Both the position numbers and the translations under genes were made by a program. Positions 2,899 to 21,012 of a DNA stretch of 22,430 nucleotides are shown piece by piece. Below the pieces are notes generated by a model. The model was not told where the DNA came from. It was given only the letters and a program-made list of their open reading frames with translations, and ran no database searches. Source of the stretch: a virus; UHGV virus genome UHGV-0073206. One strand, given 5' to 3'. The first letter of the stretch is position 1, and every line of letters begins with the position of its first letter.

Positions 2899-3254
2899 TA
2901 CTGGTAATCCCCTTCTTCACCGTGGAACTCAAGATCGACCGTGCCTTCTTCGGCATTATGGTTCGCTTCGCCGTGCAGCCAGGCAGACGACAGTACATAG
3001 ACCTGACCGTTCGCCAGCTCGGCAGTGATGGTCATCTCATCAGACGAGGTGATTTTGCTCACCGGAAAATTCTTCGGCACCTTGAAGGTCCCTTTGACAT
3101 AAGGCGCACGGTGAGTTTCCTTGCGGTCCACTGAACCGTCCAGGCCGATGATGTCATCATTGACCGTCCTGTTCATGGGCACCTCAATGCCGCCGGTCAG
3201 TGATAGCTGCTGACCGTCAATTTTGAAATAACAGGTTCCCCCGATACGGGCCAT
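2898..3254 (-). CDS. Phage tail tube protein (Mu gpM-like size)
   Basis: 118-aa ORF immediately downstream of the sheath fragment with start overlapping its stop; size and position match contractile-tail tube proteins. Confidence 0.5.
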   Translation of the reverse strand: MARIGGTCYFKIDGQQLSLTGGIEVPMNRTVNDDIIGLDGSVDRKETHRAPYVKGTFKVPKNFPVSKITSSDEMTITAELANGQVYVLSSAWLHGEANHNAEEGTVDLEFHGEEGDYQ

Positions 3255-4030
3255 TATGCAGACTCCTCTGAATACTGAAGACGGAACTGGTTAACCACGG
3301 CAAAGACACGCAACTGGTTAACATAGTCAGGCGGGAACAGCGTGTTCAGGCGGTTCGGATCGCTGGCATCACGCTCCACAACCAGGTACTGCTTGAACAG
3401 TTCGTAGTTTTCCACGATCCCCGCACGCTCGAGCTGACGGTAGGTTGCCAGCAGTTCCCCTTTGATCACCGCCGGGGTGACAATCGCCTGACCGGGACCA
3501 AAGCGGGTACCGTCACTGGCAAGCTTGTGACGCCCGTACTTACTGGTAATGACGGATTTCAGTTTGCGCAGTACATACGCGCTGGTATGCAGCGTCTCGC
3601 TGTCGAGGTAGCTGTTATCCGCAACCCCGTAAGCGTTTTTCCTGTACGTGGTGACATCACGCTGAATGCGCAGCACCCCGCTTTCGACATACGCCGTTGC
3701 CACGCCATGAGACAGCAGGGTCTGCTGCTCGGTCATTGTGAACCGTTTCCCCTTCGGCGCAGGCAGCATACCCACCAGCTCACCGGTCTGCGTGGGACGT
3801 GCCGGATCGTTGCGGATAAACACTGCCGCGCGGGCGGTACGGCTGGCTGCCAGCTCGTCGGCAGGCGTCTGGGTGTCTTTTTCGTACCCCGCCAGGGTAA
3901 TGTGCTGCTGGTTAAACTGGTCACCTGCGGTCACCAGTTCTGACAGCGTGCCGGTCTTTGCCGTATACACATGACCATACAGCTGACGCGCATAGCTCCA
4001 GCGACCGCTGGTATCGTTCATCTCGGTCAC
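3254..4030 (-). pseudogene. Tail sheath protein, C-terminal fragment
   Basis: 258-aa ORF directly upstream of the tube gene; sheath proteins are normally larger than 350 aa; the 5' end overlaps the out-of-frame tail of the terminase fragment, indicating a deletion junction near 4030-4090. Confidence 0.5.
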
Positions 4031-4595
4031 CGTCCTCCGGACGGCTCATGCTTTGAGCATGTACTTCAATACCAAATGCTTCACGCAATGGCTCCGTGCG
4101 TTGCGCCATCAGTCTGGCTGGACGAAAAACTTCCCACGCCTGTTTCTCTGTTGTGGCCCCGGAATACACTTCAGCGCCAAATTCATCATCGCAGGCAAAC
4201 ATATACAGACCAACGCCAGCAGACATTGCTGATTTCCCGTTTTTACGGGGTATTTCGTTGTAAGCCTCGCGAAATCGACGCAGACCGCTCTTTTTTCTCA
4301 CCCACCCAAACACAACACAGATACAGAACAACTGCCAGGGTTCAAGCGTAATGGGCATCCGCTTAAATGCCCACTCCCCTTTGGTGTGTGGCAAAAGCTG
4401 GATAAATTTCGCCACCCGCTCAGCTTTATCTTTATCAAATTTAAACGGATAGTTTTTTTTAACTGAATTTTCCAGGTCATCAAGGTGACGCTGGCAGGCT
4501 AGAACGACATAACGGCAAACCTGAATTTTTCCGCGAACCACGTCACGTGCATACTGATTTGCGGCATTAACGTTCACGTAATTTTTTCGTGTCAT
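3921..4595 (-). pseudogene. Terminase large subunit, N-terminal fragment (truncated)
   Basis: N-terminal ~180 aa ([20 protein letters not shown]...PITLEPWQ...[19 protein letters not shown]...) look like TerL and its ATG overlaps the terS stop; thereafter the frame carries low-quality sequence and ends at 3921. Full TerL would be more than 500 aa. Confidence 0.6.
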
Positions 4596-5177: not shown

Positions 5178-5528
5178 TCACCTGATTCGTTCGCGCGCTG
5201 TTTTCGCTTTATGGCAGGGCCAGCACAGACTCTGCAGGTTGCTGTCTGCGTCTGTTCCGCCATGCGCTTTCGGGATGATGTGGTCGACGGTTTTCGCCTC
5301 GCTCACCACACCGGCACGCAGACACAACTGACACAGACCTTTATCGCGCTTCAGAATACGGGCACGAATCACCGTCCATTTTGAGCCATAGCCACGCTGG
5401 TGGCGGCTCAGTCCGCGCTGGTGCTGCACCCAGCCTTCACCACGATGTTTACCACAGTAGCCAGAACTGTCTGTTGTTGTGCCTGCGCAGCCTCGCTTAC
5501 GACAGGCGCGGGGGATCCGTGATGGCAT
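5178..5528 (-). CDS. HNH endonuclease (packaging-associated)
   Basis: Start at Met (MPSRIPRACRK...) preceded by SD AAGGAG; HNH motif DHIIPKAHGGTDADSNLQSLCWPCH and cysteine-rich N-terminus; sits upstream of terS. Confidence 0.75.
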   Translation of the reverse strand: MPSRIPRACRKRGCAGTTTDSSGYCGKHRGEGWVQHQRGLSRHQRGYGSKWTVIRARILKRDKGLCQLCLRAGVVSEAKTVDHIIPKAHGGTDADSNLQSLCWPCHKAKTARERIR

Positions 5529-5590
5529 TGGAATCTCCTTAATACCGACATTATCGCAGCCCCTCACTGAAGAGCTGCTGTAATGCCTGT

Positions 5591-5698
5591 TACTCACGAA
5601 TCAATCGAGCATGTTGACCGCTCATTTCAATGCGTAAGTATTGTGGCTTGCCGTCAATCAACGCGGTGATTAACTTATCACCTGTAGGTTTCCACATA
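5591..5698 (-). CDS. Small hypothetical protein (35 aa, MWKPTGDKLITALIDGKPQYLRIEMSGQHARLIRE)
   Basis: Not in the ORF track (below its size cutoff); ATG preceded by SD AGGAGA at good spacing; fills the gap between the lipoprotein gene and the HNH gene. Confidence 0.3.
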
Positions 5699-5870
5699 AT
5701 TTTCTCCTGTTTTAATGCCCCTTGCCGCCGGGCAGTTGATCAAAGTTCATCTTGATTCGGCAAGATTTAGAATGAATAAGATAAAATTGGCACACGCAGC
5801 AGAATTTCATGCTTTCCGGACGCTGACGCACCCTTCATTTTTCAGCAAAATATTCTGCTCTTACAGGCGA

Positions 5871-6053
5871 TCAGTTCTGCAGACACTGCCGAACACCGTC
5901 GACAATTTCACAGACCTGAGACGCGGTATCGAAAAGCTGGCGCGCCTTATCCAGGCTGACGCACCCCACCAATAAAAAAGGCACCAGTATCGCTACCAGT
6001 GCCCGTTTCACCGCCGTTCGCGGCATTCTGTGTGTCCAGTGTTTTCGCGCCAT
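5871..6053 (-). CDS. Small lipoprotein (signal peptide with lipobox LLVGC)
   Basis: 60-aa ORF with basic N-terminus, hydrophobic core and LVGC lipobox (MARKHWTHRMPRTAVKRALVAILVPFLLVGCVS...); ATG lies 1 nt after the stop of the upstream 37-aa ORF. Confidence 0.45.
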   Translation of the reverse strand: MARKHWTHRMPRTAVKRALVAILVPFLLVGCVSLDKARQLFDTASQVCEIVDGVRQCLQN

Positions 6054-6054
6054 A

Positions 6055-6168
6055 TCACCACCAACGCACAGCCCAAATCAGAACAGCGACCGCCACAAGG
6101 CGAATTGCAAAGGCCGCAGCCCTTGTCAAATCAAGGCTCGCGGGAGTTTCCATTTCAATACCTTTCAT
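6055..6168 (-). CDS. Small membrane protein (37 aa, one TM: AAAFAIRLVAVAVLIWAVRWW)
   Basis: Short ORF downstream of the endolysin terminator, translationally coupled to the lipoprotein ORF; below the ORF-track cutoff. Confidence 0.35.
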   Translation of the reverse strand: MKGIEMETPASLDLTRAAAFAIRLVAVAVLIWAVRWW

Positions 6169-6260
6169 AATGGACAACCTCAAAAAGAATCTTTTATACT
6201 TTCCCACGAGGATTTTCTCCGTACTCACTAATCACAATTTCCCCTTTGACGTGAAAACTA

Positions 6261-6298
6261 AAAACCCCGGACTGTTCCCCCAGCCGGGGTTTTGTTTT
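6261..6298. terminator. Bidirectional rho-independent terminator after the endolysin gene
   Basis: Stem CCCCGG(A)CTG / CAGCCGGGG flanked by A4 on one side and TTTTGTTTT on the other, giving a U-tract in either orientation. Confidence 0.6.
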
Positions 6299-6300
6299 AC

Positions 6301-6684
6301 TTATCGCTTCAGCTGAAAGTGAGGTCCGTCTTTCAGCGTTTTCCAGTCCCCGCCCCATTCGATAGCGATCCCCAGCTCTGCGGCAGCCTGCTTAAATGCC
6401 TGTGCGATTTTCTCGTACAGAGGCCACTCCCATGACACCTGACTGCCAATGTAGGCCACAACATCCACCGCATCACCGGTCAGGTGGCGGCTGTTCATGG
6501 TCTGGCTTTTCCCTTCCGCAACCAGCTGTTTCTGGCGATACTTACTGCGCAGGCCTTCCGTAATACCGAAATCAACCTCCGTCAGCTCCAGCGCACGGCG
6601 AACTACAGCAACCAGCTGTGGTTTGACACCCTCCAGATTTTTTTCACTGCGACGGCTGAATCTGAATTTACCCGGCATATTCAC
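6301..6684 (-). CDS. Endolysin, peptidase M15 family (L-alanyl-D-glutamate peptidase-like)
   Basis: 127 aa; motifs SRHLTGDAVDV and WGGDW...H match zinc-binding residues of M15/VanY-type phage endolysins; ATG overlaps the stop of the upstream membrane protein (ATGA). Confidence 0.8.
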   Translation of the reverse strand: MNMPGKFRFSRRSEKNLEGVKPQLVAVVRRALELTEVDFGITEGLRSKYRQKQLVAEGKSQTMNSRHLTGDAVDVVAYIGSQVSWEWPLYEKIAQAFKQAAAELGIAIEWGGDWKTLKDGPHFQLKR

Positions 6685-6956
6685 CTCAACAATGGAAAGA
6701 TTTTTGTGACGTTCCCGCGTGCGCGTATCACCAGCACGCAGAACAGCAGATTAAAAAACACTTCCAACCAGCCCGTTGCTAACGGGCGACCACACAGATA
6801 GCTGAGGGGCGCAAAGGCATACAGCAGCATCAGCAGCCAGGCCAGCCATGACACCAGCGGTTTATGCCTGGAATCACGGCGACGATAAAAAAAGAGCGTC
6901 AGCACGATAACCGCGCATAACGCCACATTCAGCAATCCGGGAAGGTTACTTAACAT
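6681..6956 (-). CDS. Holin/antiholin-like membrane protein
   Basis: 91 aa from Met MLSNLPGLLNVALCAVIVLTLFF..., 2-3 predicted TM segments; ATG overlaps the upstream holin stop and its stop overlaps the endolysin start. Confidence 0.5.
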   Translation of the reverse strand: MLSNLPGLLNVALCAVIVLTLFFYRRRDSRHKPLVSWLAWLLMLLYAFAPLSYLCGRPLATGWLEVFFNLLFCVLVIRARGNVTKIFPLLR

Positions 6957-7338
6957 TGCCGCCTCCTCCACCCCGCAGGCGGGAGAACACACCGGACACC
7001 AGCGATGCAATATCCTGCTGGTGGATGAACGAGAGAATCTTCACCGACACCACCGAGACCAGCACCGCGCAAAGCGCATCTGCTGATGTAGCGTCATACC
7101 CTGTTTTTGATGCAATCCAGGCTGACAGCACACGCGCTCCCAGCACGCCGACAATAAACGACACCAGAAAATGTGCCACCACGCGCCAGACTGAAAGTGA
7201 CTGTGGCATTGTTGCCACAAATAACGCCCCGGCGAACGCGCCAAACACAATCCCGAAATCCATCCCGGTAAACAGCCCGAATACCGTCGCGCCACCCAGC
7301 GCCGCAGCCGTGCCGGAACCGGATAAGGGTTCAGACAT
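6946..7338 (-). CDS. Putative holin
   Basis: 130 aa, Gly/Ala-rich hydrophobic segments (FGLFTGMDFGIVFGAFAGALFVA), strong SD AGGAGGAAGT before ATG; first gene of the lysis cassette. Confidence 0.5.
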   Translation of the reverse strand: MSEPLSGSGTAAALGGATVFGLFTGMDFGIVFGAFAGALFVATMPQSLSVWRVVAHFLVSFIVGVLGARVLSAWIASKTGYDATSADALCAVLVSVVSVKILSFIHQQDIASLVSGVFSRLRGGGGGNVK

Positions 7339-7394
7339 ACTTCCTCCTGAAAATAAAAAAGGGCCACCAGCGACCCGTAAAAAAACACCCCGTC

Positions 7395-7416
7395 AAAGGC
7401 ATCCGCAGATGCCTTT
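7395..7416 (-). terminator. Hairpin (possible weak terminator or processing site) between the cargo cassette and the holin
   Basis: Perfect hairpin AAAGGCATC-CGCA-GATGCCTTT; the U-tract on the minus-strand transcript is displaced by 9 nt, so terminator function is uncertain. Confidence 0.3.
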
Positions 7417-7425
7417 TGTGTGATG

Positions 7426-7578
7426 TTATTCAGATTTACGCAGTAAAGGCCGGAGCACGACCAGCGCCATCGCCACCAGCACACCATCTGCCAGCACCGA
7501 CATCAGTCGTCCGGTGAAATCAACCACCACTACCAGAAACAACAGGATGACAGCCAGCACAAGGCGCGCACTTTTCAC
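7426..7578 (-). CDS. Small two-TM membrane protein (50 aa), GTG start overlapping the upstream stop
   Basis: V/MKSARLVLAVILLFLVVVVDFTGRLMSVLADGVLVAMALVVLRPLLRKSE; GTG overlaps TGA of the TerB-domain gene (GTGA) with GGAG 9 nt upstream; below the ORF-track cutoff. Confidence 0.4.
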   Translation of the reverse strand: MKSARLVLAVILLFLVVVVDFTGRLMSVLADGVLVAMALVVLRPLLRKSE

Positions 7579-8177
7579 AGGTACTGCTCCAGCGGCAACT
7601 GCAGCGCCTGCGCAATTTTCTTCAGTTGCGCTTCTTCTTCCTGAGCGATACCGTCCTGGTCAGCGATATCCAGACACAGGCACAGCACATTAACTGCATC
7701 ATCAGTACCGGCAACATCAGCCAGCTGACGAAGAGCTTCGGCATTGGCAGAACGCGGCGACGCTTCATAACGGGCGCGGATATTTGCACTCATTTGTGCA
7801 ATCTCACCGGAGAACGGCGCAAAGGCAGGAAGTGCTGCAATGGTTTTTTCCAGTACCGCGATTTCTTTCGCGTCACAGGTGCCGTCAGCGTATGCAATGG
7901 AGTACGCGCCCCAGACGGTCGCCTCCACTGCGTCACGGTTCTCCATCTTCTTCACTTCGGTAATGGCCTTGCGGGTTTTCTTTTTGAAAATACTAAACAT
8001 CGTGACTTTTCCTTTTAGTGGGTGAGCCTGCATAACAAGCTGAGTCAGTATTAACTGGCAGCGTTCGCGTGAAAGGTAAGTATTCTGCGCAATTTCCCCG
8101 ACGGTCGCCGGTTCGGTGACGCTTAATTCATTAAACACCACTCTGGCGGTTTCGGTCATATCCTGCTGTTTTAGCAT
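7575..8177 (-). CDS. HTH + TerB-domain protein (N-terminal winged-helix-like segment, C-terminal TerB-like domain)
   Basis: Best start at Met MLKQQDM (8177) with A/G-rich SD; N-terminal ~55 aa contain an HTH-like segment (TVGEIAQNTYLSRERCQLILTQL); the remainder (MFSIFKKK...YADGTCDAKEIAVLEKTI...DIADQDGIAQEEEAQLKKIAQALQL) matches the two DG..E repeat pattern of tellurite-resistance TerB domains. The ORF-track start at 8300 would include the terminator and is less likely. Confidence 0.6.
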   Translation of the reverse strand: MLKQQDMTETARVVFNELSVTEPATVGEIAQNTYLSRERCQLILTQLVMQAHPLKGKVTMFSIFKKKTRKAITEVKKMENRDAVEATVWGAYSIAYADGTCDAKEIAVLEKTIAALPAFAPFSGEIAQMSANIRARYEASPRSANAEALRQLADVAGTDDAVNVLCLCLDIADQDGIAQEEEAQLKKIAQALQLPLEQYL

Positions 8178-8300
8178 GCCTTTTTCCCTTTTCTGGTTAA
8201 CGTGACATACCAATACCTCTTGTCGAAAAAGCCAGCAAGCTGAAAGACCAGTATTCACAACTACCAGCGCGTTTAATGTTCTGTGCCGTTTTTCAGGCAT

Positions 8301-8489: not shown

Positions 8490-9044
8490 CTAAGCGTCAG
8501 TAAAAGAAAATGCATCTCGCATCAGTGGATACAGAATAAACTCAGCTATTCTCAGCCACATATCTATACGATTGCGGCATGTTGCATAGCACCACTCAGG
8601 GTGAACCTCATTCAACAATTCAGCCATTTTGCGTTTACTCATCCCCCGCCCTTCGTACCTTTGCCGCAGGATATCAATCAATCCAGGATAACGTGCAAGC
8701 GCTTTACTTATCACCCCATCAATGCGTAACGCCTCTGCATCAGTACAGTGAGACAACCAGCTCTTCTGTCTGCCAGCGATCATCTCTCGCAAGAATGCTT
8801 CCAGCTCTGGTTTATCAATCCCTGACTCCCTGATTCTACGCAGGGCTTCATTGATTGCGGTTTTTGTCAGTTTTTTGGATGCCAGCAACTGATTGAACAT
8901 ATTTCCTGGTTTGCCACCACCTATATACGACCAACGCCCCCACATCCGTAATTTCCCCTGGATCCAGACGACTTCCAGCGTTTTTAGACGTAAATGCTCG
9001 CCGCTTTTGCCTGTAATTTCCGGATATATCATATTTACGATCAC
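8490..9044 (-). CDS. Late-gene antiterminator Q-like protein (QuuD-type family)
   Basis: 184 aa; N-terminal LRMWGRWS motif resembles the LERWGAW motif recalled for small Q-family antiterminators; position between rusA and the lysis cassette is canonical for Q. Start (GTG 9044 overlapping rusA stop, or ATG 9032) is ambiguous. Confidence 0.5.
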   Translation of the reverse strand: MIVNMIYPEITGKSGEHLRLKTLEVVWIQGKLRMWGRWSYIGGGKPGNMFNQLLASKKLTKTAINEALRRIRESGIDKPELEAFLREMIAGRQKSWLSHCTDAEALRIDGVISKALARYPGLIDILRQRYEGRGMSKRKMAELLNEVHPEWCYATCRNRIDMWLRIAEFILYPLMRDAFSFTDA

Positions 9045-10909: not shown

Positions 10910-11065
10910 TTACTCCTCAGGTTCGTAAGCTGTGAAGACAGCGACCTCCGTCTGGCCGGTTCGGATTCGTACCTCGCAGAGGTCTTTCCTCGTTACCAGT
11001 GCCGTCACTATGACGGTTAAACAGATGACGATCAGGGCGATTAACATCGCCTTTTGCTGCTTCAT
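10910..11065 (-). CDS. hok: Hok/Gef-family type I toxin (51 aa)
   Basis: MKQQKAMLIALIVICLTVIVTALVTRKDLCEVRIRTGQTEVAVFTAYEPEE: single TM helix followed by the conserved C...R..GQ/T.EV.A...YE motif of Hok/Gef toxins. Confidence 0.85.
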   Translation of the reverse strand: MKQQKAMLIALIVICLTVIVTALVTRKDLCEVRIRTGQTEVAVFTAYEPEE

Positions 11066-11122
11066 AGCCTGCTTCTCCTTGCCTTTCGGCACGTAAGAGG
11101 CTAACCTACATTTGTGAGACAT
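10910..11122 (-). CDS. mok: Mok-like N-terminally extended frame overlapping hok (translational-coupling ORF)
   Basis: 70-aa in-frame extension (MSHKCRLASYVPKGKEKQA + Hok); the size relationship matches recalled mok/hok pairs. Not independently verifiable here. Confidence 0.35.
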   Translation of the reverse strand: MSHKCRLASYVPKGKEKQAMKQQKAMLIALIVICLTVIVTALVTRKDLCEVRIRTGQTEVAVFTAYEPEE

Positions 11123-11241
11123 AGATTGGGCCTCAGATTAATGTTAAGCGTCTTGCAGGACGCGTAATGTTAACTGGGGCTTTTCTCTATCTGCCTTTTG
11201 GTGTTCATGCCTGAGACAGATAGCCTCAAGCACCCGCAGTT

Positions 11242-18540: not shown

Positions 18541-21012
18541 ATGAGTAAAGTCTTTATTTGCGCCGCCATTCCGGACGAACAGGCAATAAAGGAAGAAGGT
18601 GCAGTCGCTGTAGCCACTGCCATTGAAGCCGGCGACGAACGTCGCGCCCGTGCCAAATTTACCTGGCAATTCCTGGAGCAATATCCGGCTGCTCAGGACT
18701 GCGCTTATAAATTTCTTGTCTGCGAGGATAAACCCGGCATGCCCCGCCCTGCCATCGACTCTTGGGATGCTGAATATATGCAGGAAAACCGCTGGGATGA
18801 GGAGTCAGCTTCCTTTGTCCCGGTTGAGACTGAATCAGATCCGATGAACGTCACTTTTGACAAGCTGGCCCCTGAAGTACAGAACGCTGTCATGGTTAAG
18901 TTCGACACATGTGAAAACATCACCGTTGATATGGTGATTAGTGCACAGGAACTGTTGCAGGAAGACATGGCAACATTCGACGGACATATCGTTGAAGCGT
19001 TGATGAAAATGCCAGAAGTTAACGCCATGTATCCGGAGCTTAAGCTGCATGCCATCGGGTGGGTTAAGCATAAATGTAAGCCTGGAGCTAAATGGCCCGA
19101 AATTCAGGCAGAGATGCGCATCTGGAAAAAACGTCGCGAAGGTGAACGCAAGGAAACCGGAAAATACACGTCTGCTGCTGATCTCGTCCGCGCCAGAGCC
19201 AATCAACAGAACACTGAAAATTCAACAGGAAAAATCAGCCCGGTCATTGCTGCCACTCATCGCGAATACAAGCAGACATGGAAAACACTGGATGATGAAC
19301 TGGCCTACGCTCTGTGGCCTGGTGACATTGATGCCGGAAACATTGACGGCAGCATCCATCGCTGGGCAAAAAATGAAGTTATCGACAACGACCGCGAAGA
19401 CTGGAAGCGTATCTCGGCATCAATGCGCAAACAGCCTGATGCCCTTCGCTACGACCGCCAGACTATTTTTGGCCTTGTCCGTGAGCGTCCGATCGACATT
19501 CACAAAGACCCTGTGGCACTGAACAAATACATTACTGAATACCTGACTACAAAGGGCGTGTTTGAAGATGAAGGAACAAATCAGAGCGCAACTGATACTC
19601 TCTCGTCGCCAGTACCAGAAACTGATGCAGTGGAAACGGCAATTCCGGACAACGAAAAAACCGAATGCAAAGTGGAAGTCGAACCATCTGTAGAGCGTGA
19701 GGGGCCGTTCTACTTCCTCTTCACCGACAAGGATGGCGAAAAATACGGTCGCGCAAACAAACTTTCTGGTCTGGATAAGGCGCTGTCTGCTGGGGCTACT
19801 GAAATCACGAAAGAAGAATATTTCGCCCGCAAAAACGGTACATACTCAGGTTCACAACAAAATACTGGTGCATCTGACACGACCGCACAACCAGGGTCAG
19901 TAAAAGTTACCGCTGACGAAGTAAACAAAATTATGCAGGCAGCCAATATCAGCCAGCCTGACGCCGATGAACTGCTTGCAGTATCACGTGGTGAATTTGT
20001 TGCAGGAATTAGCGATCCGAATGATCCGAAATGGGTGAAGGGGATGGAAACCCGCGATTCTGTGAACCAGAACCAGCAAGAAACGGAACAGAACGGCCAG
20101 AAAGCGGAACAAAACAGCCCAAATGCGTTACAAAACGAGCCAGAAACGAAACAGCCTGAACCAGTAGTGCAACAGGAACCGGAAAAGATCTGCACCGCCT
20201 GCGGTCAGACCGGCGGCGGCAACTGCCCTGATTGTGGCGCGGTGATGGGCGACGCAACATACCAGGAAACATTCGATGAAGAGTATCAGGTTGAAGTTCA
20301 GGAAGATGATCCGGAGGAAATGGAAGGCGCTGAACATCCAAACAAGAAGAACACTGGCGGCAATCAGCATCACAATAGCGATAATGAAACTGGCGAGATG
20401 GCAGATCACTCAATTAAGGTGAACGGTCATCACGAAATCACATCCGCCAGTAGGACGTGTGACCATCTAATGATCGACCTTGAAACCATGGGAAAAAATC
20501 CTGATGCCCCGATCATCTCAATAGGTGCAATATTTTTCGATCCGCAAACCGGAGATATGGGACCGGAATTTAGTAAGACTATCGATCTGGAAACTGCTGG
20601 CGGAGTCATTGATCGGGACACCATTAAATGGTGGCTTAAGCAATCACGCGAAGCGCAATCTGCCATTATGACCGATGAAATCCCGTTAGATGATGCACTG
20701 TTACAATTGCGGGAATTTATCGACGAAAACTCCGGTGAATTTTTTGTTCAGGTCTGGGGAAATGGAGCCAACTTCGACAACACGATTTTGCGCCGTTCAT
20801 ACGAACGGCAGGGGATCCCCTGCCCGTGGCGTTACTACAACGATCGCGATGTACGCACAATCGTTGAGCTGGGGAAAGCCATAGACTTCGATGCCAGAAC
20901 GGCTATCCCATTCGAAGGTGAGCGCCATAATGCACTTGATGACGCTCGTTACCAGGCAAAATACGTTTCAGCTATCTGGCAAAAACTGATCCCGAGTCAG
21001 GCTGATTTTTAA
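18541..21012 (+). CDS. RecE-like (YdfE-like) protein with C-terminal DEDDh 3'-5' exonuclease domain
   Basis: 823 aa; central region (SRGEFVAGISDPNDPKWVKG...CTACGQTGGGNCPDCGAVMGDATYQETF) matches recalled Rac RecE including the CxxC-x9-CxxC zinc ribbon; the C-terminus carries DnaQ-like motifs (HLMIDLETMG; VWGNGANFD; HNALDDARYQAKY) instead of RecE's PD-(D/E)XK nuclease domain. No recT follows. Confidence 0.7.
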   Translation: MSKVFICAAIPDEQAIKEEGAVAVATAIEAGDERRARAKFTWQFLEQYPAAQDCAYKFLVCEDKPGMPRPAIDSWDAEYMQENRWDEESASFVPVETESDPMNVTFDKLAPEVQNAVMVKFDTCENITVDMVISAQELLQEDMATFDGHIVEALMKMPEVNAMYPELKLHAIGWVKHKCKPGAKWPEIQAEMRIWKKRREGERKETGKYTSAADLVRARANQQNTENSTGKISPVIAATHREYKQTWKTLDDELAYALWPGDIDAGNIDGSIHRWAKNEVIDNDREDWKRISASMRKQPDALRYDRQTIFGLVRERPIDIHKDPVALNKYITEYLTTKGVFEDEGTNQSATDTLSSPVPETDAVETAIPDNEKTECKVEVEPSVEREGPFYFLFTDKDGEKYGRANKLSGLDKALSAGATEITKEEYFARKNGTYSGSQQNTGASDTTAQPGSVKVTADEVNKIMQAANISQPDADELLAVSRGEFVAGISDPNDPKWVKGMETRDSVNQNQQETEQNGQKAEQNSPNALQNEPETKQPEPVVQQEPEKICTACGQTGGGNCPDCGAVMGDATYQETFDEEYQVEVQEDDPEEMEGAEHPNKKNTGGNQHHNSDNETGEMADHSIKVNGHHEITSASRTCDHLMIDLETMGKNPDAPIISIGAIFFDPQTGDMGPEFSKTIDLETAGGVIDRDTIKWWLKQSREAQSAIMTDEIPLDDALLQLREFIDENSGEFFVQVWGNGANFDNTILRRSYERQGIPCPWRYYNDRDVRTIVELGKAIDFDARTAIPFEGERHNALDDARYQAKYVSAIWQKLIPSQADF

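Follow-up and report, generated by a model that had tools for sequence, protein, structure and literature searches.

Some phages have no recognisable spanin with which to pass the outer membrane; none was found in 91 of 677 phages in the survey of Kongari et al. 2018. The question of how such phages get through it may be approached by way of positions 5871–6298 of the virus genome UHGV-0073206 (22,430 nucleotides, hereafter the window), a phiP27-like prophage of E. coli whose late genes lie on the minus strand. Here the endolysin gene is followed by a terminator hairpin (T1), the gene of a small membrane protein and the gene of a 60-residue lipoprotein. We propose, with a probability of roughly 60%, that a P27-type lysis cassette has its distal end in this region, where an o-spanin-derived lipoprotein with a predicted role in outer-membrane disruption stands next to a portable accessory module. 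The locus lends itself to a natural comparison, in that one and the same holin pair with its endolysins precedes a classical spanin pair in some cassettes and the lone 60-residue lipoprotein in others; should the latter suffice for lysis, it would constitute a minimal outer-membrane disruptor that is easily tested in E. coli.

A Conserved Lipoprotein with a Predicted Outer-Membrane Location

The open reading frame (ORF) of the lipoprotein runs from 6053 to 5871 on the minus strand, and an earlier note on this DNA correctly described its product as a 60-residue lipoprotein with the lipobox LVGC and no proline-rich character. The lipobox lies at 5972–5961 and ends in Cys31. The signal peptide (6053–5964) has an unusually long basic n-region (MARKHWTHRMPRTAVKR) and contributes the sole hydrophobic segment of the protein; the mature part (5963–5874) consists of 30 residues, ends in ...VRQCLQN, contains no proline at all and includes the conserved Cys48 and Cys57. 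Its predicted helix displays a heptad-like hydrophobic stripe, and the net charge of the protein is about -1. Cys31 is invariant across the family and so, at least nearly, are Cys48 and Cys57; disulfide-linked oligomers formed through the latter two are plausible.

The ratio of nonsynonymous to synonymous polymorphism (pN/pS) in the lipoprotein frame is 0.24 overall and 0.19 for the mature part (54 distinct sequences), as opposed to ~1 and 1.8 in the other two frames. For the small membrane protein the in-frame value is 0.09 (37-residue ORF, 11 distinct sequences), and over the two genes the other frames give ~1 to 4, so both ORFs are real genes under purifying selection. Codons 1–9 of the lipoprotein are themselves constrained (pN/pS 0.20) and conserved in distant relatives, so that the 60-residue form is the real one and translation starts at the first ATG rather than at the 51-residue start of some RefSeq records. 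The gene is present, mostly intact, in 352 of 5426 complete E. coli genomes.

In the Lol sorting pathway, an aspartate at position +2 acts as the inner-membrane retention signal. The lipoprotein of the window has Val at this position; its relatives have Ala, Thr, Ser or Gly there, and Asp never occurs, from which we infer that the protein is lipidated and located in the outer membrane. A lipobox free of an inner-membrane retention signal is also what defines the signal of an o-spanin.

An o-Spanin-Like Signal Peptide with No i-Spanin Nearby

The lipoprotein is the conserved fourth gene of a holin_8/holin_3_7/endolysin cassette that occurs in P27-like, lambda-like and Mu-like phages and that recurs with either M15 or GH108 endolysins. 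A Mu-like locus (L168) thus carries holin_8, holin_3_7, a GH108 endolysin and the lipoprotein; a diverged locus (L170), with a holin only ~20% identical to that of the window, carries holin_8, holin_3_7, an M15 endolysin and the lipoprotein; and the same four genes stand in E. coli KO11FL within a prophage that has a quite different structural module, where no Rz-like or i-spanin gene is annotated in a 40-kb stretch of prophage and flank. The family is nevertheless tiny: an exhaustive profile search of 1.84 billion proteins yielded 24 representatives at 50% identity, which share the motif C-x2-[LF]-[DE]-K-A-R-x-[LW]-F-x2-A-x2-V-C-x8-C.

A reciprocal search seeded with diverged holin_8 proteins returned 42 loci, and in those inspected classical two-component spanins usually fill the slot after the endolysin. 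Fifteen loci carry an o-spanin that starts with MQ(S/R)TRSHWSHREPR (PHROG 456/3001) and overlaps a PHROG 214 i-spanin, others carry lambda-like Rz/Rz1 or further spanin pairs, and among the loci inspected the mini-lipoprotein was found only in L177 and L178, plus a degenerate copy in L179. The earlier note's placement of the region at the spanin position is thereby borne out, since sister cassettes with the same holin pair carry i-/o-spanin pairs exactly there.

The likeness extends to the protein itself. Aligned with hhalign, the lipoprotein profile matches these sister o-spanins over residues 2–34 with 96% probability (E 1.1e-9), PHROG 7528, the family to which the lipoprotein belongs, matches the same o-spanins at E 1.2e-4, and the two share the motif RxHW(S/T)HRxPR...GC. 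As the aligned n-region is not hydrophobic (RKHWTHRMPR vs. RSHWSHREPR), the match is no effect of composition. The lipoprotein gene, to judge from these alignments, is derived from an o-spanin gene. The profile check against spanin and Bor/Cor families that the earlier note had called for thus gave a divided answer, with the N-terminal half matching o-spanins and no Pfam family matching any part. More broadly, neither the lipoprotein nor the small protein has a Pfam or NCBIfam match, the PHROG families matched (4493/1115 and 7528) are all of unknown function, and word-indexed homology searches returned only the name 'hypothetical protein', which is also how RefSeq lists the two.

An i-spanin adjacent to the lipoprotein was found in none of the architectures examined, and among ~160 loci an intact lipoprotein never occurs within 3 kb of a lambda-family Rz; the three loci that have both carry one and the same lipoprotein pseudogene with three stop codons. 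Decayed copies comprise this GER2-type pseudogene, a 5′-truncated one in L172 and the start-codon-less one in L179. The mature domain also bears a by-eye likeness to the C-terminal 'SLD...C' of the sister o-spanins, but alignments controlled by shuffling, a comparison in all frames and blastn led us to reject it.

Two Independently Inherited Late Genes

Is the lipoprotein bound to the small protein in front of it? We sorted ~83 non-redundant contexts drawn from IMG/VR and from reference loci. The arrangement of the window, in which 247 nt with T1 and the peptide separate endolysin and lipoprotein, is seen in 24 distinct contexts; in 21 others the lipoprotein follows the endolysin after 14 nt, with neither terminator nor peptide. 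In a further ~27 contexts other genes precede peptide and lipoprotein (either an M15 endolysin is missing from the nearest 2.5 kb or an ORF for 93 residues is inserted), and the remaining ones hold other inserts in the peptide's place (a KilA-N gene, a reverse-strand gene for 90 residues, or different small transmembrane (TM) peptides). Beyond the 14-nt class, the endolysin-to-lipoprotein spacing is 7 nt in L170 and shrinks to an ATGA overlap in L168. Together with the many peptide copies that occur without the lipoprotein, the 21 peptide-free contexts demonstrate that the two genes are not an obligate pair, but independently inherited late genes, which speaks against the minimal spanin-like pair that the earlier note had considered.

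The Small Membrane Protein Travels in a Portable Module

The 37-residue ORF seen in the earlier note (6168–6055, minus strand) is present with its C-terminal TM segment (Kyte-Doolittle 2.05), its end ...VRWW-TGA and the junction TGATATG, in which one base separates its TGA from the lipoprotein ATG. Its start, by contrast, probably lies further upstream. The codon 13 triplets 5′ of ATG 6168 is GTG, ATG or TTG in all variants and is preceded by a GGAG Shine-Dalgarno sequence, and the intervening extension (KYKRFFLRLSIM) has an in-frame pN/pS of 0.25–0.30, the conservation of its amino-acid sequence reaching as far as a diverged relative (SKYRRILMRLTM). Conserved start codon, Shine-Dalgarno sequence and selected extension together make GTG 6207 the probable start of a 50-residue protein (MGKYKRFFLRLSIMKGIEMETPASLDLTRAAAFAIRLVAVAVLIWAVRWW; 6055–6207, minus strand; PHROG 4493/1115, E 1.8e-16 and 1.1e-5), with five more basic residues than the shorter form and the TM segment at residues 30–47, whereas the internal ATG 6168 may serve as a second start. 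Two possible in-frame starts recall dual-start holin/antiholin pairs such as lambda S107/S105, a small inner-membrane protein inside a lysis cassette recalls P2 LysA (there placed between endolysin and spanins), and a single hydrophobic helix recalls type I toxins such as Hok and Ldr; no sequence similarity to any of these was found.

An i-spanin has its N terminus inside and its C terminus outside, with a long, mostly helical periplasmic domain. The C-terminal TM segment of the small protein leaves at most 3 periplasmic residues in the 50-residue form (N-in) or 16 in the 37-residue form (N-out), so it cannot be an i-spanin, in agreement with the earlier judgement that the peptide is too short for one.

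What moves between phages is a module consisting of T1, a ~55-nt leader and the small-protein ORF, with a sharp left edge at T1. It is found in 881 of 5426 complete E. coli genomes (~16%), including the O157:H7 strain inspected, although the function of its product is unannotated. An 82%-identity type makes up 741 of the 883 matching small-protein records, and these copies do not accompany the lipoprotein: in the contexts inspected (the O157:H7 strain, phage GER2, L163 and L164) they lie between a lysozyme gene and Rz, again with the junction TGATATG. L197 is more distant; there another i-spanin family is preceded, with a one-base gap, by a hairpin resembling T1 and a peptide copy that has diverged. 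The small protein is therefore a separate portable module that is tied to whichever outer-membrane-disruption gene comes next.

Other small peptides with a C-terminal TM segment lie between endolysin and lipoprotein in L033 (2709–2862), L063 (2661–2995) and L171 (187–657); they include a 50-residue PHROG 12997 member, a 48-residue PHROG 1115 variant, a 44-residue PHROG 4906 member and tandem peptide copies, and the slot seems to collect small membrane proteins. Mini-ORFs also occur ahead of the small protein. In GER2 (L004, 1609–1640) the leader holds an 8-codon mini-ORF, MGREVLSL, whose TGA overlaps the small-protein GTG (GTGA), and in the window there is a 13-codon mini-ORF in another frame that ends within GTATAAAAG; such mini-ORFs may be due to chance or may add a layer of translational coupling.

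Two Hairpins on the Path of Late Transcription

The first hairpin, T1 (6261–6298), folds with -22.6 kcal/mol on the minus strand and -21.4 kcal/mol on the plus strand (z -4.1 and -4.7), and as 0 of 200 shuffled sequences fold as well, it is truly bidirectional, as the earlier note had it. It is retained with altered stem bases in GER2 and L197, and the genes immediately upstream of it differ between phages, at least four different ones being found. The same note took T1 to mean that the two distal genes are transcriptionally separated from the endolysin, a claim that we find doubtful: the stretch from T1 to the small protein yielded no promoter-like site on the sense strand, and a gene for a Q-type antiterminator lies upstream, so T1 need not cut these genes off from the endolysin and both are probably still part of the late operon.

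The second hairpin, T2 (5969–6004, minus strand; hairpin 6004–5979), of which the earlier note made no mention, is embedded in codons 17–28 of the lipoprotein gene, within the signal peptide, and reads GGCACUGGUA-GCGA-UACUGGUGCC followed by U6. It folds with -20.4 kcal/mol on the sense strand and only -9.1 kcal/mol on the opposite one, as its two G-U pairs allow good folding on the mRNA strand alone. Codons 19–26 show no third-position variation among the 54 distinct sequences, in which most other codons vary, and the diverged L170 retains the stem and has GCAA in place of GCGA in the loop, both of the GNRA type. In the Mu-like L168 T2 is absent and the cassette contains no strong terminator; the Mor and GemA genes of this locus point to Mu-type late control, which works by activators and not by antitermination. 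A conserved terminator hairpin within the region coding for a signal peptide would be an unusual way to silence a possibly toxic late gene.

On the opposite strand, a promoter-like site (6171–6200, plus strand; TGGACA-18-TATACT, 10/12 of consensus) is aimed at T1 and could yield an RNA of ~90 nt. It is conserved in the GER2 type and scores 9/12 in the diverged L197. As the site falls inside the coding extension KYKRFFLRLSIM, its conservation is probably explained by coding.

The Published Spanin Entry of phiP27

The lipoprotein is partly anticipated in the literature; the new observations are that it stands with no partner, that the small protein belongs to a portable module and that a hairpin is embedded in the lipoprotein gene. 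In the survey of Kongari et al. 2018, phiP27 is credited with a two-component spanin of the 'separated' kind, and with 32 + 30 periplasmic residues (62 in total) this spanin is the shortest one recorded there. The coordinates of its o-spanin (20706–20861) are those of a member of the lipoprotein family described here. Its i-spanin (20348–20542), on the other hand, is a 64-residue ORF with a TTG start that runs antisense to a 90-residue PHROG 36812 gene, has no PHROG match itself, belongs to an insert unique to phiP27 among the contexts examined and is absent from the window. A hydropathy scan of all phiP27 ORFs gave no better i-spanin candidate. These features suggest that the published i-spanin call is probably spurious and that the catalogued pair is most likely a partner-less o-spanin derivative; if the lipoprotein suffices for lysis, the 'shortest spanin' entry would stand corrected.

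In the RefSeq record of phiP27 (L002, NC_003356) gene L32 (20630–20785) is laid in the wrong frame over the lipoprotein gene, whose real 62-residue ORF is left unannotated. The L32 frame resembles a relic of the C-terminal frame of an i-spanin (LDTQNAA vs. LESQRAA).

A Proposed Role in Outer-Membrane Disruption and Its Alternatives

In light of these results, we propose that the lipoprotein has retained the signal peptide of an o-spanin, has no i-spanin and carries a different, helical mature domain of 30 residues with two cysteines. Its synthesis would fall late, in translational coupling with the lysis gene before it, and the protein would perform or assist the last step of lysis, in which the outer membrane is disrupted, in place of a two-component spanin. 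The small protein and T1 would have inserted between the endolysin and the next outer-membrane gene, be it Rz, another i-spanin or the lipoprotein, leaving a one-base junction, and the small protein would act as an accessory or regulator of this final step. T1 and T2 would halt ordinary transcription, such as that in the lysogen, and the upstream Q-type antiterminator would permit late read-through, an arrangement that would fit a product harmful when mistimed.

Several observations weigh against this proposal. With its 30 residues, the mature part is unable to reach across the periplasm. The established spanin mechanism, in which a bridging complex fuses the membranes, is therefore inapplicable in its present form, and the lipoprotein, if active, would have to act in a different way; two-component spanins are further recognised by their combined periplasmic span, and 30 residues with no partner compare poorly with a shortest surveyed total of 62. 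The mature domain shows no detectable similarity to any o-spanin (shuffles p = 0.2–0.8) or to Pfam or NCBIfam families. The amphipathicity of its helix is only moderate (hydrophobic moment muH 0.35, shuffle fraction 0.05) and weaker in relatives, and AlphaFold2 predicts for the precursor a single long helix, with limited confidence (predicted local distance difference test, pLDDT, 69; predicted template-modelling score, pTM, 0.34). The role given to the small protein follows from position alone, the exclusivity of Rz and lipoprotein was tested with a single Rz family, and many carriers are prophages of uncertain viability, the window's own being defective.

A more far-reaching version, which we put forward only tentatively, holds that a single partner-less lipoprotein has replaced the two-component spanin and disrupts the outer membrane alone or together with its own cleaved basic signal peptide. 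In the latter variant the long, conserved signal peptide would stay in the inner membrane after cleavage. If true, the lone lipoprotein would join two-component spanins, unimolecular spanins and the disruptin as a fourth kind of device that disrupts the outer membrane.

The lipoprotein might instead be a functionless relic of a spanin locus that lost its i-spanin, in phages that lyse with no dedicated outer-membrane factor or only under shear. The missing i-spanin, the mature part too short for the periplasm, the decayed copies (GER2-type, L172 and L179) and the 91 surveyed phages without a recognisable spanin would suit such a history, which we nevertheless consider unlikely, given that the mature part is under selection with its two cysteines invariant, that relatives with much diverged mature domains retain its length, motif and position, that the tight translational coupling is preserved and that hundreds of E. 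coli genomes carry mostly intact copies. The small protein in the inner membrane and the lipoprotein in the outer one could also make up a minimal two-component spanin, for which one could cite the gene order, the inner-membrane protein first and the lipoprotein one base later, a layout seen in many spanin pairs, and the other small TM peptides that precede the lipoprotein in L033, L063 and L171. The lipoprotein does without the peptide, however, in the 21 contexts and in L168, L170 and KO11FL, this peptide is also found ahead of complete Rz/Rz1 or other i-/o-spanin pairs, and 3 or 16 plus 30 periplasmic residues fall far under the reported minimum of 62, itself from a doubtful gene call; such a pair is very improbable.

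The earlier note also raised a membrane-peptide toxin with a partner and a cargo lipoprotein. On the first reading, the small protein could be a type I toxin kept in check by an antisense RNA running from the plus-strand site to T1 (~6207–6298), T1 being foldable on both strands and coincident with the module boundary, and the predicted 95-nt RNA folding with z = -2.8. We judge this quite improbable, as the 'promoter' block lies within coding sequence and is reduced to 9/12 in L197, Rfam at gathering and permissive thresholds returned nothing at the site except sub-threshold hits such as sar RNA (16.7 bits), no sense-strand promoter for a toxin mRNA was found after T1 and the gene never occurs uncoupled from a lysis gene. 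A literature search for a small RNA (sRNA) or functional study at the site found nothing relevant, the Pas sRNAs lying upstream of the holin. Least probable of all is that the lipoprotein is lysogenic-conversion or exclusion cargo like Bor, Cor and Llp, which are expressed in the lysogen or in early infection from their own signals. Its small size and predicted outer-membrane location, its place between lysis and packaging genes, where lambda carries bor, and the enterotoxin genes found at the same place in SerU-LTIIb would fit such cargo. Against it stand the shared orientation and translational coupling with the endolysin, kept even in distant relatives, the terminator-like hairpin inside the ORF with no promoter of its own found, the genuine bor gene that coexists with it in L071, the lack of any Pfam match and its alternation with spanins in the slot.

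Comparison with Known Lysis Systems

Returning to the proposal that the lipoprotein is an o-spanin derivative serving outer-membrane disruption, its likeness to two-component o-spanins lies in the lipobox signal, the predicted outer-membrane location, the slot after the endolysin, the periplasmic cysteines and the homologous first 33 residues. It differs in the lack of a conserved i-spanin and in its mature part, which is short, helical and proline-free, whereas that of the sister o-spanins has ~65–80 proline-rich residues. Like the unimolecular spanin of phage T1 (gp11), it is encoded by one gene that fills the spanin slot and specifies a lipoprotein signal, but it has neither the C-terminal TM segment nor the membrane-bridging periplasmic domain of that protein. 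Colicin lysis proteins and entericidins are small, envelope-permeabilising lipoproteins with mature parts of ~28–30 residues, and colicin lysis genes lie downstream of an expression-limiting terminator; size and terminator layout are thus alike, although these proteins are found outside holin-endolysin cassettes and do not have the two extra cysteines. Identity with a colicin lysis protein (Lysis_col) was considered and rejected, as there is no Pfam match at E <= 1 and no sequence support. As to Bor, Cor and Llp, the resemblance is that of a small prophage outer-membrane lipoprotein near the lysis-packaging junction. The disruptin of the spanin-less phage phiKT (gp28) is likewise one small protein, for which rupture of the outer membrane has been proposed (bioRxiv 10.1101/515445); it is reportedly cationic and antimicrobial-peptide-like, with no lipoprotein signal, in contrast to the predicted lipid anchor, slightly negative charge and moderate hydrophobic moment of the lipoprotein.

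Setting of the Cassette in the Prophage

The nearest relatives of the window are prophages of human strains of the enterotoxigenic E. coli (ETEC) type, with 99.8% identity across 5500–7400, and the closest sequenced phages are phiP27, phiSTEC1575-Stx2k and 'Actinobacillus phage' pPE4. The cassette genes, those just upstream of them and the 35-residue ORF and hok/sok locus named below are on the minus strand. The cassette opens with a 130-residue holin-like protein (6946–7338; Pfam PF16931 Phage_holin_8, E 3.7e-23), followed by a second holin-like protein of 91 residues with three TM segments (6681–6956, coordinates from RefSeq; Pfam PF05449 Phage_holin_3_7, E 1.4e-21) and by the endolysin, an M15 metallopeptidase of the L-Ala-D-Glu peptidase type (6301–6684; PHROG 465, E 1.3e-75; Pfam Peptidase_M15_4). 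Upstream lies the Q-like late antiterminator (8490–9044; Pfam DUF1133, E 6.7e-101; Phage_antitermQ, 27.8 bits against a cut-off of 26) and, just before the first holin gene, a TerB-domain protein and a 50-residue DUF3927 membrane protein (7426–8300). This last site, which stx2e occupies in phiP27, is one of variable cargo and has the tRNA genes on one side and the lysis cassette on the other.

With stx2e directly upstream of the cassette in phiP27, and with the type II heat-labile enterotoxin genes eltIIbA/B directly past the endolysin of the same holin pair in the partial genome SerU-LTIIb (L176, 1510–2936), in the very slot of the lipoprotein, toxin genes are found on either side of the lysis module, and the mode of lysis therefore bears on toxin release. 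With its slot taken by toxin genes in a partial genome, SerU-LTIIb is of no help as a reciprocal case. Deletion of a putative holin (130 residues, WP_032083190) downstream of stx2e is reported to abolish antibiotic-induced release of Stx2e (PMC12571312), and the cloning primer used in that work encodes MSEPLS, the N terminus of the holin_8 protein of the window.

Beyond the lipoprotein, transcription would pass a 35-residue ORF, an HNH endonuclease gene and the small terminase gene. The 35-residue ORF (5590–5697; PHROG 8025, E 1e-22) has a 3′ end that overlaps the HNH endonuclease ORF in its longest reading (GTG), and in phiP27 it is replaced by L33, a gene for 115 residues. The large terminase ends early, after ~193 codons near 4020, where it joins the C-terminal part of a tail-sheath gene (Phage_sheath_1/Phage_sheath_1C; region ~3254–4595), and related prophages measure ~42 kb as compared with 22 kb for the window. 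From the truncated terminase and the difference in length it follows that the window prophage is a deletion derivative unable to package DNA, its lysis cassette still being intact. It also carries a complete hok/sok type I toxin-antitoxin locus (10910–11235), with an Rfam sok match of 120 bits at 11060–11235 and an overlapping 70-residue ORF (10910–11122) that holds the Hok-like sequence ...MLIALIVICLTVIVTALVTRKDLCEVRIRTGQTEVAVFTAYEPEE.

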